64,000 nucleotides of DNA from Raja brachyura (taxonomy: Eukaryota), in contig OY740789.1 of assembly GCA_963514005.1 (NCBI GenBank), positions 23,994,001 to 24,058,000 on the forward strand, in the 5' to 3' direction. How positions within the stretch are numbered: position 1 is the first letter of the stretch; every line of letters begins with the position of its first letter. Below, piece by piece: positions 40,426 to 64,000 of the stretch. Made by a program: the position numbers and the translations under genes. The notes under the pieces were generated by a model, which had not been told where the DNA came from, did no database searches, and saw only the letters and a program-made list of their open reading frames with translations.

Positions 40426-43049
40426 TAAGAAGGGGAATGGTCCCAGAATTAAGAGTTCATCTATTTAGGGCTGAGCTGAAGAGGATTTTTTTTATTCAGA
40501 GTAATGTAAATGTTCAGAATTATCCATGTCAGAGTGGGAGCAATGCTTAGTCATTGAGAGCGCAGAGGGTTGGGATGTATGCACCCCAGCAGAAGCGAAA
40601 TACGAGATCAGGCGGGAGTATGCACGTTGTGTACAAGACCAGCCGTTGAAGCCAACCTCGAGGGGCCAGCTGACCTATTCCTTTCTCTTTTCATGTTTTC
40701 AAGTACTACATGCCTTAAACACCTTACAAAAATATCATTTTGCTTAGGCAGTTGGCAGAAAACCAGGGCAGCGAAGTTCCCTTGTTGTTTTGTGCTGTGA
40801 ATCACACTGATGAAAGCCTTGCTTTGGGGAATGCAGATAATTGAGACAGTGCAACTCCCTGGACTCCAGCCCAGTAGAAACAGTATCTTTAAAAATTGGC
40901 AGTCCCTTCAACATACTGTTTGCAAATAGAGGCATCTACCCTTCAAATATAAGACAAGTGCCCAGAACAGAATAGAATATCTGCCATAATGCTAATGGAT
41001 ATCACAGTGAATTAACAATATGCACCCGTAGCACAATAAGAAAATAAATGTACTTAATCCCCCCTCAAAGGAACAGATGGATGCTTCTTCATTACTTCTG
41101 AGTTTAAGTTAGTCAAATAACACTGTGCTCAATAACCCAGCATGCCTGAACGAAAAGGAACATTAAGGTAGGTATTGAATTAAACAAATGTTGAGCTTGG
41201 TAAATAAGAACATTTAAAAGACATTTGGGTAGGTAAATCCATGAGAATGAGTTAGAGACATATGGGTCAAATAAGGACAAATGAGACTAGCTCAGATGAA
41301 CATCTGGGTCAGCATGGGCAAATTGGGCTGAAGGATCTATTTCATGCTATATGACTGTATAACTCTAAAGACCATCATTTCATATCCACAGCAATATTTC
41401 TATTTAGAAATTAAAATACACCTTTTATTTATGTCTCTAAAACAAGTTGCCGGACATTCAAAGTTGTTGGCTTTATATTTGTGCAATGACTTCCATTTTC
41501 CTGCTTTTTCAGCTTTTGAGAGACCTGCGTTTATTTCTGCTAACTTTCTTTTAAAATATCTGCAGAAGTTTTTACGTTTTGATGCCTCTTTCCAGTTCAC
41601 TCCAATATTCTATTTTCTCTCTATCAATAATTACTGTAGGTATTCTAATTACTAAACTCTAAAATTCTCCTGACCTTGTCGTTTATTATTAATTTGGATT
41701 AAAAAATTAAACATCTTTACCTTTAAACTAATTAAAGGATAGGCTATAAAAAAATTACTGTGCCAATTGCACCGGTAGAAATTAACATGCACTGAAACCA
41801 AATTTATTACGTAGAGAGACTCCAACAGTTCAAACTCAGGGCCCTAATCAGAATTGTGCAATGCTTCAAACCTGGTTTATTTTTTGAAACAAAAATCAAT
41901 AATTTTCTCAGCAATCAAAAATGAATCATGTCAATCCCTTAGGGAGTAGGCAGAGAAATAGGGAATATGCTGCAACATATGAGAGGATAATTACTCAAAA
42001 CTTGCTCACTTAATTAAAAACAATAATTAGCATTTCAAATTGAAAAATAATTGGATTGTCGTCATCTACAGTAATACCACATGCCATGGATTAAATTGCA
42101 TTTAGCAAGGCATATAATAGAACTAATTGTACAGCAAGTGATACTCATCAGTGACAAGGGTGCATTACAATGCAGGACTCGTTAGTTTGTATGATACAGT
42201 AAATGCTACACCAGCAACACAAACCTTCTCATTAACTTGGCTCTTGACTGACCTCATTTCTGCTGGGGGTTTTTTCCACCATGCAATTTTGATTATTTTA
42301 ATTCCACACCTCCAGTATCTTTGTTTATCCTCTGGGTGTGAGGGGTTGGAGACGGGAAGAGGCCATGTAGTGATGGTGTCTATCATGTGAGCAGGTGGGC
42401 TGAATGAGTGAATGCGGAGGAAACTTAAATCTCCCAATGAAACCGGTTAGAACATGGAACATAGAAAAGTACAGCAAGGGAACATGCCCTTCAGCCCATA
42501 ATGATCGTGCTAAACATGAGACCAATTCAAATTAATCTCATCTGCCTGAACATGATCGTGGATATACAGGGAATGGAGGGATATGGGTCATTTGCAGGCA
42601 GATGAGATTGGTTTATATTGACATCATGTTTGGCAAAGACATTACGAGTCAAATGGCCCTTTCCTGTGCTGTACTTTTCTATGTTCTATGCAAGAGGATC
42701 ACTGAAATAGTTCCATCTCCACTGAAGTTAACTGATTGTGCCATGTTCCAAATCAATTCCTGTTCTTTACTTATTCACGCTCTTGGCATTCAATCTAGTA
42801 GTGCTTCTCAACAGCAGTGCTAGGACTGTGAAGAAAATGTCATAGGATAAGTGAAATCTATTCTGTTAAACAAATATTTTTTTCCTTTTCTGGCTTAAAA
42901 TGACAATCTAGAACCTTTGCCACATTTGAGAACATTCAACATTAAAGGGTTGAGTAGAGTTCAAGTGTGGTTCCATTTTTGAATTTTCTTAATTTCTATG
43001 AATCCCAAATATCAACATCAATATTTGTTTCTTAACCGTTAAATTATGG

Positions 43050-43217
43050 AAATCAAACCAACTTAGATGCATTTGAGAGTGGAATAAAATCATTTGATGA
43101 TTTTATTCCACTCTCAAATGCATCTAAGTTGGTTTGATTTAAACCAACTGAAGAAGTCTGAATTTCTGAAGAGAATCATTTGATGATTTTCTCTTCAGAA
43201 ATTCAGACTTCTTCAGT
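43050..43217. repeat. Two adjacent inverted repeats (44-bp and 29-bp perfect arms)
   Basis: 43050-43093 / 43097-43140 and 43147-43175 / 43189-43217 are exact reverse complements; both centred on AATCATTTGATGATT. Confidence 0.95.
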
Positions 43218-43245
43218 CTGAGGAAGGGTCCCGACCTGAAACGTC
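43218..43245 (+). ncRNA. Minimal type-I hammerhead ribozyme motif heading a pLTR fragment (to ~43302)
   Basis: CTGAGGA-A-GGGTC-CC-GACCT-GAAAC-GTC: conserved core, paired stem II, palindromic ACGT helix III. Confidence 0.6.
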
Positions 43246-43491
43246 ACCTATTCATGTCCTCCAGAGATGCTGCCTGGCCCGCTGAGTCACTCCAGCACTT
43301 TTGAAAATTGCCTTCTATTTTTTATTTGTGTACAAGCTACTTTCACAGGCTCACTTTGTGAAAGACTATTATCCTAATTGTAGTGATTTGAAAATAATCA
43401 ATGCTTCACAAGTGCAGATTTCTGGAAATATTTTAAGCGATCCACTTTAGATACACAATTTAATTCCTTTTTTCTCTGGTTCTTGCTCCAG

Positions 43492-44436
43492 GTCATTTTT
43501 CGAAAGATCATTGATGTGAAGAAAGAGGAAGAAGAGAGGATGCGTCTGAAGAATGAAGTGACACTCAGTATCCCCGTGGACCATCCTGTCAGGAAGCTCT
43601 TCCAGAAGTTCAAGCAGCAGAAGGAATTGCGGAATCAGGCTGCGGAGCGCAGCAGCTCAGATATATGCCACCTCAAAGCAGACAACCACTCATTTCACAA
43701 TGGTGTGTCTACCACAGGCACGAGTGTGGTCACTGTGTCTCAGATAACACCAATAGCATCTTCCCTTTCCTTCGTGAGAAATAATGAGCAAAAGCTGCCG
43801 ATACAGCGGGAGTCCGTGGAGCTGAAAACAAAAGGTTTGACAGATGAGATGTGCTCTCGGGTTACAAGCCCCACACAGGCTAAGGCTGGCAATGGGAAGG
43901 GATGGTTAAGACTTAAGAATTCTGTCGCCTTCACAGACCCCTTCCCTGGATCCAGGGAGGAGAAGGAACAGAACTGGAACAATGTCATCAAAGCTGAATC
44001 CATGGAGATTCTTTCAGAGGAATCAAAAGGTACGGATTCTGAGAACAATGTTGTAAAGAATCCTTTGAGGAAAACAGACTCGTGTGACAGTGGCATTACG
44101 AAAAGTGACCTGAGGTTAGATAAGGCCGGAGAGATTCGCAGCCCAATGGAGCATAGCCCAGTTCAAGCTGATGTGAGGCACCCCTTCTACCCGATCCCTG
44201 AGCAGGCTTTGCAGACCACGCTGCAAGAAGCTAAGATGGAACTGAAAGAAGACATTCAGTTGCTATGCAACAGGATGATGGGCCTTGAGAAACAAGTGAT
44301 GGAAATTCTTCAAATACTGTCTGAAAAGAATCTGCCAGAAATGCCCTCTGAGAAGTCTCAACACACAAGTCAGGAAATATTACCTGTTTCTAAGCCTCCA
44401 GCTCCTTCGTTGGAAGAAGAAGATGTTCAGTCTTAG
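43492..44436 (+). CDS. kcnh5: Terminal coding exon of voltage-gated potassium channel subfamily H member 5 (Eag2/Kv10.2)
   Basis: Polypyrimidine tract + CAG acceptor ending 43491; [81 protein letters not shown] match KCNH5 as I recall it rather than KCNH1; C-terminal coiled coil; stop TAG. Confidence 0.96.
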
Positions 44437-48505: not shown

Positions 48506-49127
48506 AAGACTTCTTGCTTGCAGCAGCACAACAGATACATAAACATAGTAAAAATATGTAATCCTATTAAGGTTCTATCTGCAATTTCTTTGACATTATA
48601 TTCAACACAAAATTGGAAGTCCATTTTCTGCGATTTCAGAAGCATATTAACTTCCTGGCTGAAATTGGCATTAAAGAAAAGCAAGAGCTAAAGGACAATG
48701 TTGCAGAAACTTTGCAAGCTTAATTTATTTTCACTTCAAAATACATATTTCGTTAACATGAAGCCATTGGCAAGTTTTAACTACCTTACCATTGACACAG
48801 ATCAAATTTACACAAGATTGTCTCTGCCTGTAAACTAACCATTCAGAGACACTGTCTTTTTGAACCAAATAAGATTCTGAAGGGATATGACAGATTGATG
48901 CTGTGAAGATATTTCTTCTCTAGAAATAGAGAGTATTTGGGTGACCCTAATCCTGAGACTTGGTTAATCATGGATTTTTGACGGTCTCTACCCAGATAAA
49001 TGTGAAGGCTGTGAGATTGTGGATATTTGTGGCTGGGATAAATGGAGGGGGATCAAAGGTGTTGGTGACGAGGAAAGAAGGTGGAGTTAAGGCCAAAATC
49101 ACATAAACCTTAATCTTGAGTAGGAAG

Positions 49128-49295
49128 GGCCCGCAGATGCTGATTTAAACCGAAGATAGATACAAAATGCTGGAGTAACTCAGCGGGACAGGCAGCATCT
49201 CTGGAGATGAGGAATGGGTGACATTTTGGGTTAAGACCCTTCTTCAGTCTGAGATATTGACTGTCCCGTTGAGTTGCTCCAGCATTTTGTGTTAT
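49128..49295. mobile_element. Hairpin-type pLTR element
   Basis: CAAAATGCTGGAGTAACTCAGCGGGACAG pairs with CTGTCCCGTTGAGTTGCTCCAGCATTTTG; decayed hammerhead 49220-49247 (-). Confidence 0.75.
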
Positions 49296-49367
49296 CCTTA
49301 ATCTCATTGAATCGAGGAACATGCTCAACTTTCAACTAACTCCTCCTCTTAAACTTGTCACAAAATT

Positions 49368-58259: not shown

Positions 58260-59377
58260 TAACGATCAACTCTTGTTCTGAATGTGAATCTCTGTCTTAC
58301 TCGAAAAGGATGTTTCATATGAATTTTGTGGGATTGAGCAGCAGTTTTCAACTTTGATAGAAAACTGGTGGGATTGGATCGACAGTTCATTATTCATCCT
58401 ATCCAAGTTTTTGGGAAAGAAAATAATCAGTATCTGCAATGAACAGCTAACGAGAGACAACTTGTAGCGATGTTACAAAATCTACCTTCAGCGGCGCTTC
58501 AGTTCTGCCACTGGCCGTGCGTGCGACTTTGGCGCCTTTGAGGGGAGCGGGGCATGATTAAATGCAGGTTTGTATCGCTTGTCGGAGAGGGATTTCCTCG
58601 AGCTGTTAGTGGATGAAGAAAAATCGATCGGACTTCCGTTCCCGTTTTTTTAAATAAAAAAATCACTGGAAAATTTAATCGCTGGATTAAAGTAACAAGT
58701 GACTTTGAACGCCCTCAACGTTTACATCGTAGTTTATTTCACATATAATCTTGCATCTTGGGTGGCTTTAATCTAATTTTATGACGCAAAAATGTTATTT
58801 GGGCCTCATATGAACCGGCAGTGTCTTTGCCTGCCAATATGGGGTTTAAATACATGGCAATGGCAACGTTCCACTCGATCGCATTCCAGAAACACCCACT
58901 CGCAAGGTGATTTAAATCCTCTTTTTTTTTGGACACTCATGTCATAATACCATCAAAATCATCTATATTTTGTGTAATTGACGATCCACAATCAGTATAT
59001 CACTAAAAGTCTGATTTTGACCACTTTTGGCTGACTGTGGGGTAATTTCAGAGAGAACACCGCCACCTATGGCCATCATTTTTAGCCAGCTCGCTCAGAG
59101 CCGCCCTCTGCCTTCCTGGACCTTCCTGATTTTTCCCATCGATGAAAAATCAGACAGATATTAATGTTTTTTTTAAATTCGCCATTCTCTCTGCTGCCCC
59201 TGCTGGAGGGAAGTGGAGGGACTATAAAACCAGGAATTGGTGTACCTCGCTCAGTCTCTGCAAGATGGAGGAAGCCAGAGGTTCACGTATCTCTGAGCTC
59301 TGAATAGCACTGAACATATGTCTACTGAACTGTGTGTGCCCTTAATGTGGTATGAAAATAAAAATATGGTTGGTTTA

Positions 59378-62300
59378 AAGTAAAAAAGCACTGCCTGCAA
59401 ATGTTTGTTTGGGTGCTTTGGGTTAAAGTTAAAAGGCAAAACTGAAAATGGTGGCTTGGGTGCTTTGGGTTGAAGTGAAAAGGCACTACTGCAAATGTTT
59501 GTTTTGGTGCTTTGGGTTGAAGTGAAAAGGCACTACTGCAAATGGTGGCTTGGGTGCTTTGGGTTGGTGAAAAGGCACTACTGCAAATGGTGGCTTGGGT
59601 GCTTTGGGTTGAAGTGAATAGGCACTACTGCAAATGGTGGCTTGGGTGCTTTAGGTTGAAGTGAAAATGCACTACTGCAAATGTTGGCTTGTGTGCTTTG
59701 GGTTGAAGTGAAAAGGCACTACTGCAAATGGTGGCTTGGGTGCTTTGGGTTGAAGTGAAAAACACTACTGCAAATGGTGGCTTGGGTGCATTGGGTTGAA
59801 ATGAATAGGCACTACTTAAATGGTGGCTTGGGTGCTTTGGGTTGAAGTGAATAGACACTACTGCAAATGGTGGCTTGATTGCTTTGGGTTGAAGTGAAAA
59901 TGCACTAATGCAAATGGTGGCTTGGGTGCTGTGGGTTGAAGTGAAAAGGCACTACTACAAATGGTGGCTTGGGTGCTTTGGGTTGAAGTGAAAAGGCACT
60001 ACAGCAAATGGTGGCTTGGGTGCTTTGGGTTAAAGTGAAAAGGCACTACTGCAAATGGTGTCTTGGGTGCTTTGGGTTGAAGTGAAAAGGCACTACTGCA
60101 AATGGTGGCTTGGGTGCTTTGGGTTGAAGTGAAAAGGCACTACTGCAAATGGTTGCTTGGGTGCTTTGGGTTGAAGTGAAAAAGGCACTACTGCAAATGA
60201 TGGCTTGGGTGCTTTGGTTTGAAGTGAAACAGCACTAATGCAAATGGTGGCTTGGGTGCTAGAGTTGAAGTGAAAATGCACTAATGCAAAAGGTGGCTTG
60301 GGTGCTTTGGGTTGAAGTGAAAAAGCACTACTGCAAATGGTGGCTTGGCTGCTTTGGGTTGAAATGAAAAGGCACTATTTAAATAGTGGCTTGGGTGCTT
60401 TGGGTTGAAGTGAAAAGGCACTGCTGCAAATGGTGGCTTGGGTGCTTTGTGTTGAAGTGAAAAGGCACTACTGCAAATGGTGGCTTGGGTGCTTTGGGTT
60501 GAAGTGAAAAGGCACTACTGCAAATGGTGGCTTGGGTGCTTTGGGTTGAAGTGAAAAAGCACCACTGCAAATGGTGGCTTGGGTGCTTTGGGTTGAAGTG
60601 CAAAGGCAACACTGCAAATGGTGGCTTGGGTGCTTTGGGTTGAAGTGAAAAGGCACTACTGCAAATGGTGGTTTGGGTGCTTTGGGTTGAAGTGAAAAAG
60701 CACTACTGCAAATGGTGGCTTGGGTGCTTTGGGTAGAAGTGCAAAGGCAATACTGCAAATGGTGGCTTGGGTGCTTTGTGTTGAAGTGAAAAGGCACTAC
60801 TGCAAATGGTGGCTTGGGTTGAAGTGAAAAGGCACTACTGCAAATGGTGGTTTGGGTGCTTTGGGTTGAAGTGAAAAGGCACTACTGCAAATAGTGGTTT
60901 TGGTGCTTTGGGTTGAAGTGAAAAGGCACTACTGCAAATTGTGGCTTGGGTGCTTTGGGTTAAAGTGAAAAGGCACTACTGCAAATGGTGGCTTGGGTGC
61001 TTTGGGTTGAAGTGAAAAAGCACTATTGCAAATGATGGTGGGTGCTGTGGGTTGAAGTGAAAAGGCACTACTGCCAATGATGGCTTGGGTGCTTTGGGTT
61101 GAAGTGAAAAGGCACTAATGCAAATAGTGGTTTGGGTGCTTTGGGCTGAACGAAAAGGCACTACTGCAAATGGTGGCTTGGGTGCTTTGGGTTGAAGTGA
61201 AAAGGCACTACGGCAAATGGTGTCATTGGGTGCTTTGGGCTGAAGTGAAAAGGCACTACTGCAAATGGTGTCTTGGGTGCTTTGGGTTGAAGTGAAAAGG
61301 CACTCATGCAAATGGTAGTTTGGGTGCTTTGGGCTGAAGTGAAACAGCACTAATGCAAATGGTGGCTTGGGTGCTAGAGTTGAAGTGAAAATGCACTAAT
61401 GCAAATGGTGGCTTGGGTGCTTTGGGTTGAAGTGAAAAAGCACTACTGCAAATGGTGGCTTGGCTGCTTTGGGTTGAAATGAAAAGGCACTATTTAAATA
61501 GTGGCTTGGGTGCTTTGGGTTGAAGTGAAAAGGCACTGCTGCAAATGGTGGCTTGGGTGCTTTGTGTTGAAGTGAAAAGGCACTACTGCAAATGGTGGCT
61601 TGGGTGCTTTGGGTTGAAGTGAAAAGGCACTACTGCAAATGGTGGCTTGGGTGCTTTGGGTTGAAGTGAAAAAGCACCACTGCAAATGGTGGCTTGGGTG
61701 CTTTGGGTTGAAGTGCAAAGGCAACACTGCAAATGGTGGCTTGGGTGCTTTGGGTTGAAGTGAAAAGGCACTACTGCAAATGGTGGTTTGGGTGCTTTGG
61801 GTTGAAGTGAAAAAGCACTACTGCAAATGGTGGCTTGGGTGCTTTGGGTAGAAGTGCAAAGGCAATACTGCAAATGGTGGCTTGGGTGCTTTGTGTTGAA
61901 GTGAAAAGGCACTACTGCAAATGGTGGCTTGGGTTGAAGTGAAAAGGCACTACTGCAAATGGTGGTTTGGGTGCTTTGGGTTGAAGTGAAAAGGCACTAC
62001 TGCAAATAGTGGTTTTGGTGCTTTGGGTTGAAGTGAAAAGGCACTACTGCAAATTGTGGCTTGGGTGCTTTGGGTTAAAGTGAAAAGGCACTACTGCAAA
62101 TGGTGGCTTGGGTGCTTTGGGTTGAAGTGAAAAAGCACTATTGCAAATGATGGTGGGTGCTGTGGGTTGAAGTGAAAAGGCACTACTGCCAATGATGGCT
62201 TGGGTGCTTTGGGTTGAAGTGAAAAGGCACTAATGCAAATAGTGGTTTGGGTGCTTTGGGCTGAACGAAAAGGCACTACTGCAAATGGTGGCTTGGGTGC

Positions 62301-64000
62301 TTTGGGTTGAAGTGAAAAGGCACTACGGCAAATGGTGTCATTGGGTGCTTTGGGCTGAAGTGAAAAGGCACTACTGCAAATGGTGTCTTGGGTGCTTTGG
62401 GTTGAAGTGAAAAGGCACTCATGCAAATGGTAGTTTGGGTGCTTTGGGCTGAAGTGAAACAGCACTAATGCAAATGGTGGCTTGGGTGCTAGAGTTGAAG
62501 TGAAAATGCACTAATGCAAATGGTGGCTTGGGTGCTTTGGGTTGAAGTGAAAAAGCACTACTGCAAATGGTGGCTTGGCTGCTTTGGGTTGAAATGAAAA
62601 GGCACTATTTAAATAGTGGCTTGGGTGCTTTGGGTTGAAGTGAAAAGGCACTGCTGCAAATGGTGGCTTGGGTGCTTTGTGTTGAAGTGAAAAGGCACTA
62701 CTGCAAATGGTGGCTTGGGTGCTTTGGGTTGAAGTGAAAAGGCACTACTGCAAATGGTGGCTTGGGTGCTTTGGGTTGAAGTGAAAAAGCACCACTGCAA
62801 ATGGTGGCTTGGGTGCTTTGGGTTGAAGTGCAAAGGCAACACTGCAAATGGTGGCTTGGGTGCTTTGGGTTGAAGTGAAAAGGCACTACTGCAAATGGTG
62901 GTTTGGGTGCTTTGGGTTGAAGTGAAAAAGCACTACTGCAAATGGTGGCTTGGGTGCTTTGGGTAGAAGTGCAAAGGCAATACTGCAAATGGTGGCTTGG
63001 GTGCTTTGTGTTGAAGTGAAAAGGCACTACTGCAAATGGTGGCTTGGGTTGAAGTGAAAAGGCACTACTGCAAATGGTGGTTTGGGTGCTTTGGGTTGAA
63101 GTGAAAAGGCACTACTGCAAATAGTGGTTTTGGTGCTTTGGGTTGAAGTGAAAAGGCACTACTGCAAATGGTGGCTTGGGTGCTTTGGGTTGAAGTGAAA
63201 AAGCACTACTGCAAATGGTGGCTTGGCTGCTTTGGGTTGAAATGAAAAGGCACTATTTAAATAGTGGCTTGGGTGCTTTGGGTTGAAGTGAAAAGGCACT
63301 GCTGCAAATGGTGGCTTGGGTGCTTTGTGTTGAAGTGAAAAGGCACTACTGCAAATGGTGGCTTGGGTGCTTTGGGTTGAAGTGAAAAGGCACTACTGCA
63401 AATGGTGGCTTGGGTGCTTTGGGTTGAAGTGAAAAAGCACCACTGCAAATGGTGGCTTGGGTGCTTTGGGTTGAAGTGCAAAGGCAACACTGCAAATGGT
63501 GGCTTGGGTGCTTTGGGTTGAAGTGAAAAGGCACTACTGCAAATGGTGGTTTGGGTGCTTTGGGTTGAAGTGAAAAAGCACTACTGCAAATGGTGGCTTG
63601 GGTGCTTTGGGTAGAAGTGCAAAGGCAATACTGCAAATGGTGGCTTGGGTGCTTTGTGTTGAAGTGAAAAGGCACTACTGCAAATGGTGGCTTGGGTTGA
63701 AGTGAAAAGGCACTACTGCAAATGGTGGTTTGGGTGCTTTGGGTTGAAGTGAAAAGGCACTACTGCAAATTGTGGCTTGGGTGCTTTGGGTTAAAGTGAA
63801 AAGGCACTACTGCAAATGGTGGCTTGGGTGCTTTGGGTTGAAGTGAAAAAGCACTATTGCAAATGATGGTGGGTGCTGTGGGTTGAAGTGAAAAGGCACT
63901 ACTGCCAATGATGGCTTGGGTGCTTTGGGTTGAAGTGAAAAGGCACTAATGCAAATAGTGGTTTGGGTGCTTTGGGCTGAACGAAAAGGCACTACTGCAA
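59378..64000. repeat. 47-bp tandem satellite with a 1115-bp higher-order repeat; runs off the window end
   Basis: Monomer GGCACTACTGCAAATGGTGGCTTGGGTGCTTTGGGTTGAAGTGAAAA; variant marker TATTTAAATAG at 60376, 61491, 62606, 63254. Confidence 0.98.

Follow-up and report, generated by a model that had tools for sequence, protein, structure and literature searches.

Just upstream of the terminal coding exon of kcnh5 in Raja brachyura, two neighbouring perfect hairpins surround duplicate copies of one short palindromic site, and the 86 nt that set this arrangement apart from a single small palindrome are all copies of local DNA. The stretch analysed, hereafter the window, covers 64,000 nt of contig OY740789.1. 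We lean towards the view that the 86-nt gain arose in a single repair event, probably after a Penelope-like stump was in place, and that it is likely neutral. The hairpins are real and recent, and likely a repair scar that is a two-ended variant of a known mutation class. On this reading the scar provides an unusually complete germline record of a single repair event, each new base being traceable, in which one step suffices to turn a small palindrome into two long perfect hairpins.

Geometry and authenticity of the twin hairpins

Hairpin 1 has a 44-bp stem (arms 43050-43093 and 43097-43140, 100% complementary) closed by the loop TTG, and hairpin 2 a 29-bp stem (arms 43147-43175 and 43189-43217, 100% complementary) with a 13-nt spacer. 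The initial annotation, made from the letters alone, had reported the first stem with its 3-nt loop, a centre shared by both hairpins with a reused piece, and a second arm running into a hammerhead-type motif 246 nt before an acceptor, all of which is borne out. At the shared centre, 17 nt recur as an exact direct repeat (43088-43104 = 43174-43190); the reused piece is a 9-mer (43141-43149, identical to 43055-43063), and the arm ends at 43217, next to a core whose last base (43245) lies 246 nt from the exon start at 43492. The second perfect stem of that annotation holds over the outer 29 bp; at the centre pairing resumes past a 2-nt T bulge, so that perfection is limited to that outer part.

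Between the 17-nt repeats lie 69 nt, made up of 36 nt copied in inverse orientation from the left flank, a 6-nt patch and 27 nt copied likewise from the right flank, both flank copies being exact (Table 1). With the extra 17-nt palindromic site they make up the gain. Removal of one 17-nt repeat and the intervening 69 nt leaves host flank, one 8-bp palindrome and the stump junction. The patch is a second snap-back that forms with its template a small hairpin with a G-T closing pair; the loop measures 3 nt in this as in every fold-back. ACT is the overlap between patch and right-flank copy, a 3-nt microhomology at the central joint. The patch region (43138-43146) also equals a 9-mer in the tail region of some Penelope family copies (e.g. 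L050), an alternative template that is probably a coincidence. Another small fold-back, with one G-T pair at 43222, is found at 43208-43226.

Table 1. Features of the hairpin locus and of the adjoining exon, in window coordinates.
Positions	Strand	Feature	Basis
43050-43085	+	Left flank, single-copy host intron DNA; template of left fold-back	Single copy; 43050-43077 also in organism C contig
43086-43104	.	8-bp palindrome, 3-nt loop; contains 17-nt copy 1 (43088-43104); centre of hairpin 1	Sequence comparison
43105-43140	-	New: exact inverted copy of 43050-43085 (36 nt)	
43141-43149	+	New: 9-nt snap-back patch, complementary to 43127-43135; last 3 nt (ACT) common with next piece	
43147-43173	-	New: exact inverted copy of 43191-43217 (27 nt)	
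43174-43190	+	17-nt duplication copy 2; centre of hairpin 2; two A missing on left side	
43191-43212	-	Penelope stump, likely its older 5' junction: short inverted fragments of the first bases of the element	Origin inferred
43213-43302	+	Decayed 3' piece of Penelope-like pLTR, no tail	Sequence comparison
43218-43245	+	Minimal type-I hammerhead core; G10.1-U11.1, 2-bp stem I; predicted unfolded	
43492-44436	+	KCNH5 terminal coding exon	Protein match

Stems of such length are uncommon and not due to chance: about 1e-15 of 44 bp are expected in 2.7 Gb, and 138 stretches spread over the genome (1,379,400 bases, low-complexity arms left out) contain 8 perfect stems of at least 20 bp, 5 of at least 25, 2 of at least 29 and none of at least 40. 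Segment 42960-43217 matched itself alone in G000, in a search that gives a lower bound. A metagenome scan returned 0 matches to the left flank, and 0 look-alike windows were found in other genomes. Among the 57 stems of at least 13 bp in the 138 stretches and the window there is one other adjacent pair, at L160:3196-3261, where abutting perfect hairpins of 16 and 14 bp have in common an 8-nt piece of the first centre; the closest element copy is 846 nt off. At L067:9319-9415 lies a perfect 30-bp hairpin that contains an inner palindrome and is followed directly downstream by a near-copy of its centre. It looks like a one-ended form of the same event, and no Penelope piece was found in its 10-kb locus. 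The window also contains an older 103-bp inverted repeat (42453-42690, 75% complementary) and a tandem array of about 100 copies of a 47-bp unit (59370-64000, 89% matches).

Perfect palindromes are sometimes artefacts of assembly or of fold-back reads, and the whole stretch is spanned by none of the contigs listed. Contigs from 4 of 20 listed sequencing runs were aligned to the locus. Run X1 comes from organism A, which may be the source sample, and run X3 from organism B and a different study. The contigs of X1 (43111-43231, 0 other letters) and X3 (43111-43240, 1 other letter) both stop at 43079 and restart at 43111, a break that the 44-bp perfect stem forces with 31-letter words. In each run five bin depths are matched to the printed digit by a model with a collapsed arm at twice the flank depth plus a loop contig (28/14 and 23.4/12). 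Organism B shows the same layout and depths despite 5 flank differences, all before 43050, and has one unlocated difference within 43111-43240; hairpin 1 is identical in A and B. Since both palindromes recur in short-read contigs from two studies whose organisms bear different labels, the hairpins are real and shared, and the probability of an artefact, against which the initial annotation had warned, is practically nil. Organism C has no coverage at 43092-43163, organism D is likewise uncovered in the unique intron at 88% likeness, and no run covers 43332-43480; these gaps speak neither for nor against the hairpins, and no empty Penelope site was observed.

The adjoining Penelope stump and the age of the hairpins

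Judged from its sequence, the stump at 43213-43302 is a truncated member of a Penelope-like pLTR family with 314 hits of at least 70 nt in 1.38 Mb, which extrapolates to about 600,000 copies. At L112 the sequence adjoins, as a pLTR, an ORF of reverse transcriptase and GIY-YIG-like type, with an 87% match 170 nt past the ORF stop and an inverted match upstream. The ORF gives a weak RT hit (RVT_1, E 6e-4, below the Pfam cut-off) and contains the motif IYC...YIGET, which we take to be GIY-YIG-like; this frame has no Pfam match. Family copies occur inverted, with an optional one-sided tail of 30-40 nt and 3' ends clustering near query positions 93-101 and 134. Target duplications (score at least 9) flank 23 of 82 pairs versus 3 of 150 cross-paired controls and measure 9-19 bp (median 14; 15-17 in 6 of the 23). 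Tails, head-to-head pairs and target duplications are described for EN+ Penelope elements in the available excerpts of PMC8557442 and PMC3846280. The copy next to the hairpins has one arm and ends at 43302, with no inverted arm, tail or target duplication found and a match between its ends of 4-5 nt only. Exact 41-mer searches for a young subfamily give a weak signal (at least 1 match for the form of this copy, at least 4 for that of L002). Elsewhere, at L056:7020-7070, the first bases of the element, stuttered in three direct copies, precede a family copy and resemble the arm of hairpin 2, and the window has at 49120-49296 a head-to-head Penelope stump with a tail and a 9-bp target duplication.

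The motif within the stump retains the hammerhead core boxes C3-A9, G12-A15.1, U16.1 and H17 and has an extra base after A9. The G10.1-C11.1 pair has become G-U (T at 43237; family majority C, 67%), and Rfam gives no hammerhead match at E≤1. Predicted pair probabilities are about 1e-6 for helix I and 0.03 for helix II, and the folding models put the cost of adopting the hammerhead at 8.9 kcal/mol now and 13.2 without the gain, in the putative earlier allele. Since this cost is higher still without the gain, the hairpins would not have switched the hammerhead off; it is predicted to be unfolded with or without them. Self-cleavage, proposed initially, appears unlikely from these models and from the 2-bp stem I; solitary minimal hammerheads did not cleave according to the accessible part of PMC4209133, and an anole motif needed its protein in that of PMC11167929. 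The next sense core is 3.6 kb away.

Organism C helps to order the events. Its contig (depth 8.61, 496 letters) matches up to 43077 and has 80 letters remaining. The depth of 5.02 in bin 43164-43187 equals 8.61 x 14/24, so that the contig likely picks up again at 43174, where the second repeat begins and where the pre-event allele, as reconstructed beforehand, would place it. Eighty letters from there end near 43243-43245, to be compared with contig ends at 43231 in A and 43240 in B. Organism C thus likely carries a single-palindrome allele with the Penelope stump already present, as read from contig depths and lengths rather than letters. A join of 43077 to 43223 via TGAG (80 letters ending at 43302) was rejected because words in common would have ended the contig sooner and because the depth of the bin favours 43174.

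The allele of organism C, together with the decay of the stump, indicates that the twin hairpins are likely younger than the Penelope insertion. Were the arms as old as the stump, the absence of mismatches in 73 arm pairs would have P 0.01-0.09. At 10 of 89 positions the stump departs from the family majority (four of these changes are uncommon or of CpG type), and it diverges by at least 6% from the 39 other scored copies; part of its differences are common to other copies, which weakens the age argument. The joint in organism C is not among the matches listed (10 joints, 38 inserts and 587 loose ends lie outside these), further contigs fall in bin 43164-43187 (excess 12.4 in X1, 20.7 in X10), and the first piece of C ends at 43077 rather than 43087, so that a further, unseen change in C has to be assumed. 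Organism C could also be a revertant through deletion between the 17-nt repeats; the flank differences in 270 nt (A-B 5, A-C 3, B-C 2) do not place it outside A and B.

Proposed repair of a staggered break and alternative origins

Given a gain composed fully of local copies, we privilege the following sequence of events. A staggered break across the palindrome would have produced two ends with 3' overhangs of 15-17 nt, both containing the palindrome. Each 3' end may then have primed on its own palindrome and been extended by 36 nt on the left and by 27 nt on the right, the latter with a 2-nt slip in an A run. A second snap-back of the left end would have added 9 nt, its terminal ACT pairing with the right end, and polymerase-theta-type end joining would have sealed the ends through this 3-nt microhomology, giving an allele in which the hammerhead is predicted neither to fold nor to cleave. 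A break with 3' overhangs explains the duplication, both fold-backs and the symmetry, the slip being the one irregularity. The individual reactions have precedents in the available excerpts of the literature: polymerase theta extends stem-loops from minimal pairing and leaves templated insertions, inverted and 3-30 bp long (PMC11292364); both reactions also feature in SD-MMEJ (PMC2943611); further precedents are tandem duplications from 3'-overhang breaks (PMC8355091) and one-ended foldbacks at yeast breaks (PMC11724301). The similar fold-backs at L067 and L160, with no element nearby, also argue for a repair scar. The stagger may stem from cruciform cutting, since diagonal cuts that leave 3' ends also give equal loop orientation, though the 8-bp palindrome stem is predicted to be weak (-4.2 kcal/mol). 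Two points count against repair from two ends: the 36-nt copy exceeds the 3-30 bp quoted for mammalian inverted insertions, and four template switches by one strand yield an identical sequence.

Such switches could have been made by a single nascent strand at a stalled fork, folding back at the palindrome, snapping back, jumping to the opposite strand guided by ACT and returning, with the same timing and neutrality. The return point matches at 6 of 8 positions (43168-43175 versus 43082-43089), and local template switches produce perfect hairpins in one step (PMC5453318, PMC10710096, in excerpt). We consider this route somewhat unlikely, as it requires four ordered switches and leaves unexplained the mirror symmetry about one palindrome, and the published four-point model, in the portions available, has one inverted fragment only. 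Quite unlikely in our view is that the hairpins were made during Penelope insertion as its 5' junction and were later lost in organism C, where recombination between the 17-nt repeats could have removed them exactly. Hairpin 2 does consist of pieces of the element's first bases, inverted start pieces lie directly upstream in 10 of 133 copies (including this one), head-to-head pairs number 84 among 599 hits, and inverted pLTRs are typical in the excerpts of PMC8557442 and PMC3846280. However, the arms are perfect while the adjoining stump is decayed, the mismatch at 43222 belongs to the older small fold-back and not to the new arms, none of 29 other best-matching copies has a perfect stem above 17 bp in the 700 nt examined, and the gain, not the element, is bracketed by a duplication. 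The serial fold-back at a pLTR junction of the initial annotation is retained as fold-back copying next to a pLTR piece; formation at the junction is not, the hairpins being likely later from organism C and the decay of the stump.

The hairpins might also be kept by selection as an RNA element acting on kcnh5, whether as a mask of a cryptic acceptor, an ADAR substrate or a new miRNA. The last 268 codons of the exon match human KCNH5 residues 720-985 of 988 (E 9.5e-90); no upstream KCNH exon motif was found within the window. Hairpin 1 is identical in A and B, its position in the intron is sense, hairpin 2 buries the AG at 43215-43216, and intronic miRNAs can be seeded by template switches (PMC10710096, in part). 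We hold this role to be highly improbable. The arms show 0-1 changes between A and B against 2.7 expected from the flank rate (5 in 270; P 0.07-0.25), so that conservation lies within neutral expectation. Zero mismatches are explicable without selection: of the recent origin or selection invoked in the initial annotation, the former stands and the latter is not needed. The AG was already predicted to be paired (unpaired 0.10 and 0.03) and its pyrimidine tract scores 10/18 versus 15/18 at the true acceptor, the strongest of the three AGs compared. All seven miRNA-family matches here fall far short of the gathering scores, loops of 3 nt compare with a preferred length of at least 10 nt (same excerpt), and the hairpins are likely absent in organism C. 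Since the stump is decayed and its ribozyme predicted unfolded, a role of the hairpins in splicing is unlikely, and the suggested effect on the last intron finds no support, the hairpins ending 275 nt before a strong acceptor. The stump contains two sense AG sites (43215-43216 and 43263-43264), use of either of which would shift the frame of the last exon; in many family copies a long pyrimidine tract precedes the first AG, resembling an intron end within the pLTR.

Returning to the staggered break, we can ask whether the element made it. The scar would then be an 'empty' Penelope insertion, in which the element's endonuclease re-cut next to its own pLTR, after ATT on either strand and staggered by 15-17 nt, and both 3' ends would have primed on themselves instead of element RNA because the overhang is self-complementary. 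The family duplications of 9-19 bp are compatible with this, and, according to the accessible part of PMC11167929, a Penelope enzyme cleaves either strand at ATT close to the junction of the pLTR. Duplication size and ATT cutting thus fit, in a nonspecific manner as any paired nicks suffice, and we regard this origin of the break as unlikely. If true, the scar would serve as a natural control for the initiation of DNA synthesis at both cut ends in Penelope insertion, and host palindromes that retroelements cause but that lack element sequence would form a class defined by it.

Relation to known systems

Neither hairpins in a kcnh5 intron nor a fold-back from two ends about a duplicated palindrome came up in the open-access literature, consulted mostly as listings, and the available part of preprint 10.64898/2026.07.22.740005 holds nothing on such a layout. 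The comparisons below rest on partial texts of the papers cited. Insertions of TMEJ and SD-MMEJ (PMC11292364, PMC2943611) are alike in their exact inverted copies of adjacent DNA, short loops and microhomology-making patch, and the gain has both the exact inverted copying and the joint microhomology of templated inverted insertions; it differs in that both ends fold on one palindrome, the site is duplicated and the 36-nt copy exceeds the quoted 3-30 bp. Yeast local foldback inversions (PMC11724301) include inverted duplications of the 5-34-bp class with 0-5-bp microhomology at the capture joint, but are one-ended and use polymerase delta and NHEJ. Small tandem duplications at 3'-overhang breaks (PMC8355091) also duplicate a site of overhang size, whereas here 69 nt of inverted flank copies separate the duplicates. 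Short template-switch mutations (PMC5453318, PMC10710096) make perfect intronic hairpins in one step without selection, from one inverted fragment rather than two and a patch.

Minimal metazoan PLE hammerheads (PMC4209133, PMC11167929) share with the present motif the core boxes, the extra base between 9 and 10.1, the palindromic helix III and the short helix I; here the motif lacks G10.1-C11.1 and is solitary. From the one-step origin of the hairpins it follows that perfect intronic stems beside ribozyme motifs need not mean function. Head-to-head EN+ Penelope stumps (PMC8557442, PMC3846280) follow the same order, in which two duplicates enclose stretches synthesised from either end that meet at a joint, and have the same duplication size; they differ in that the filling here is host flank and not element cDNA, and that the adjacent stump has a single arm and no duplication was found for it. 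If twins genome-wide carry duplications of Penelope size, they would offer a test of element priming from both target ends.
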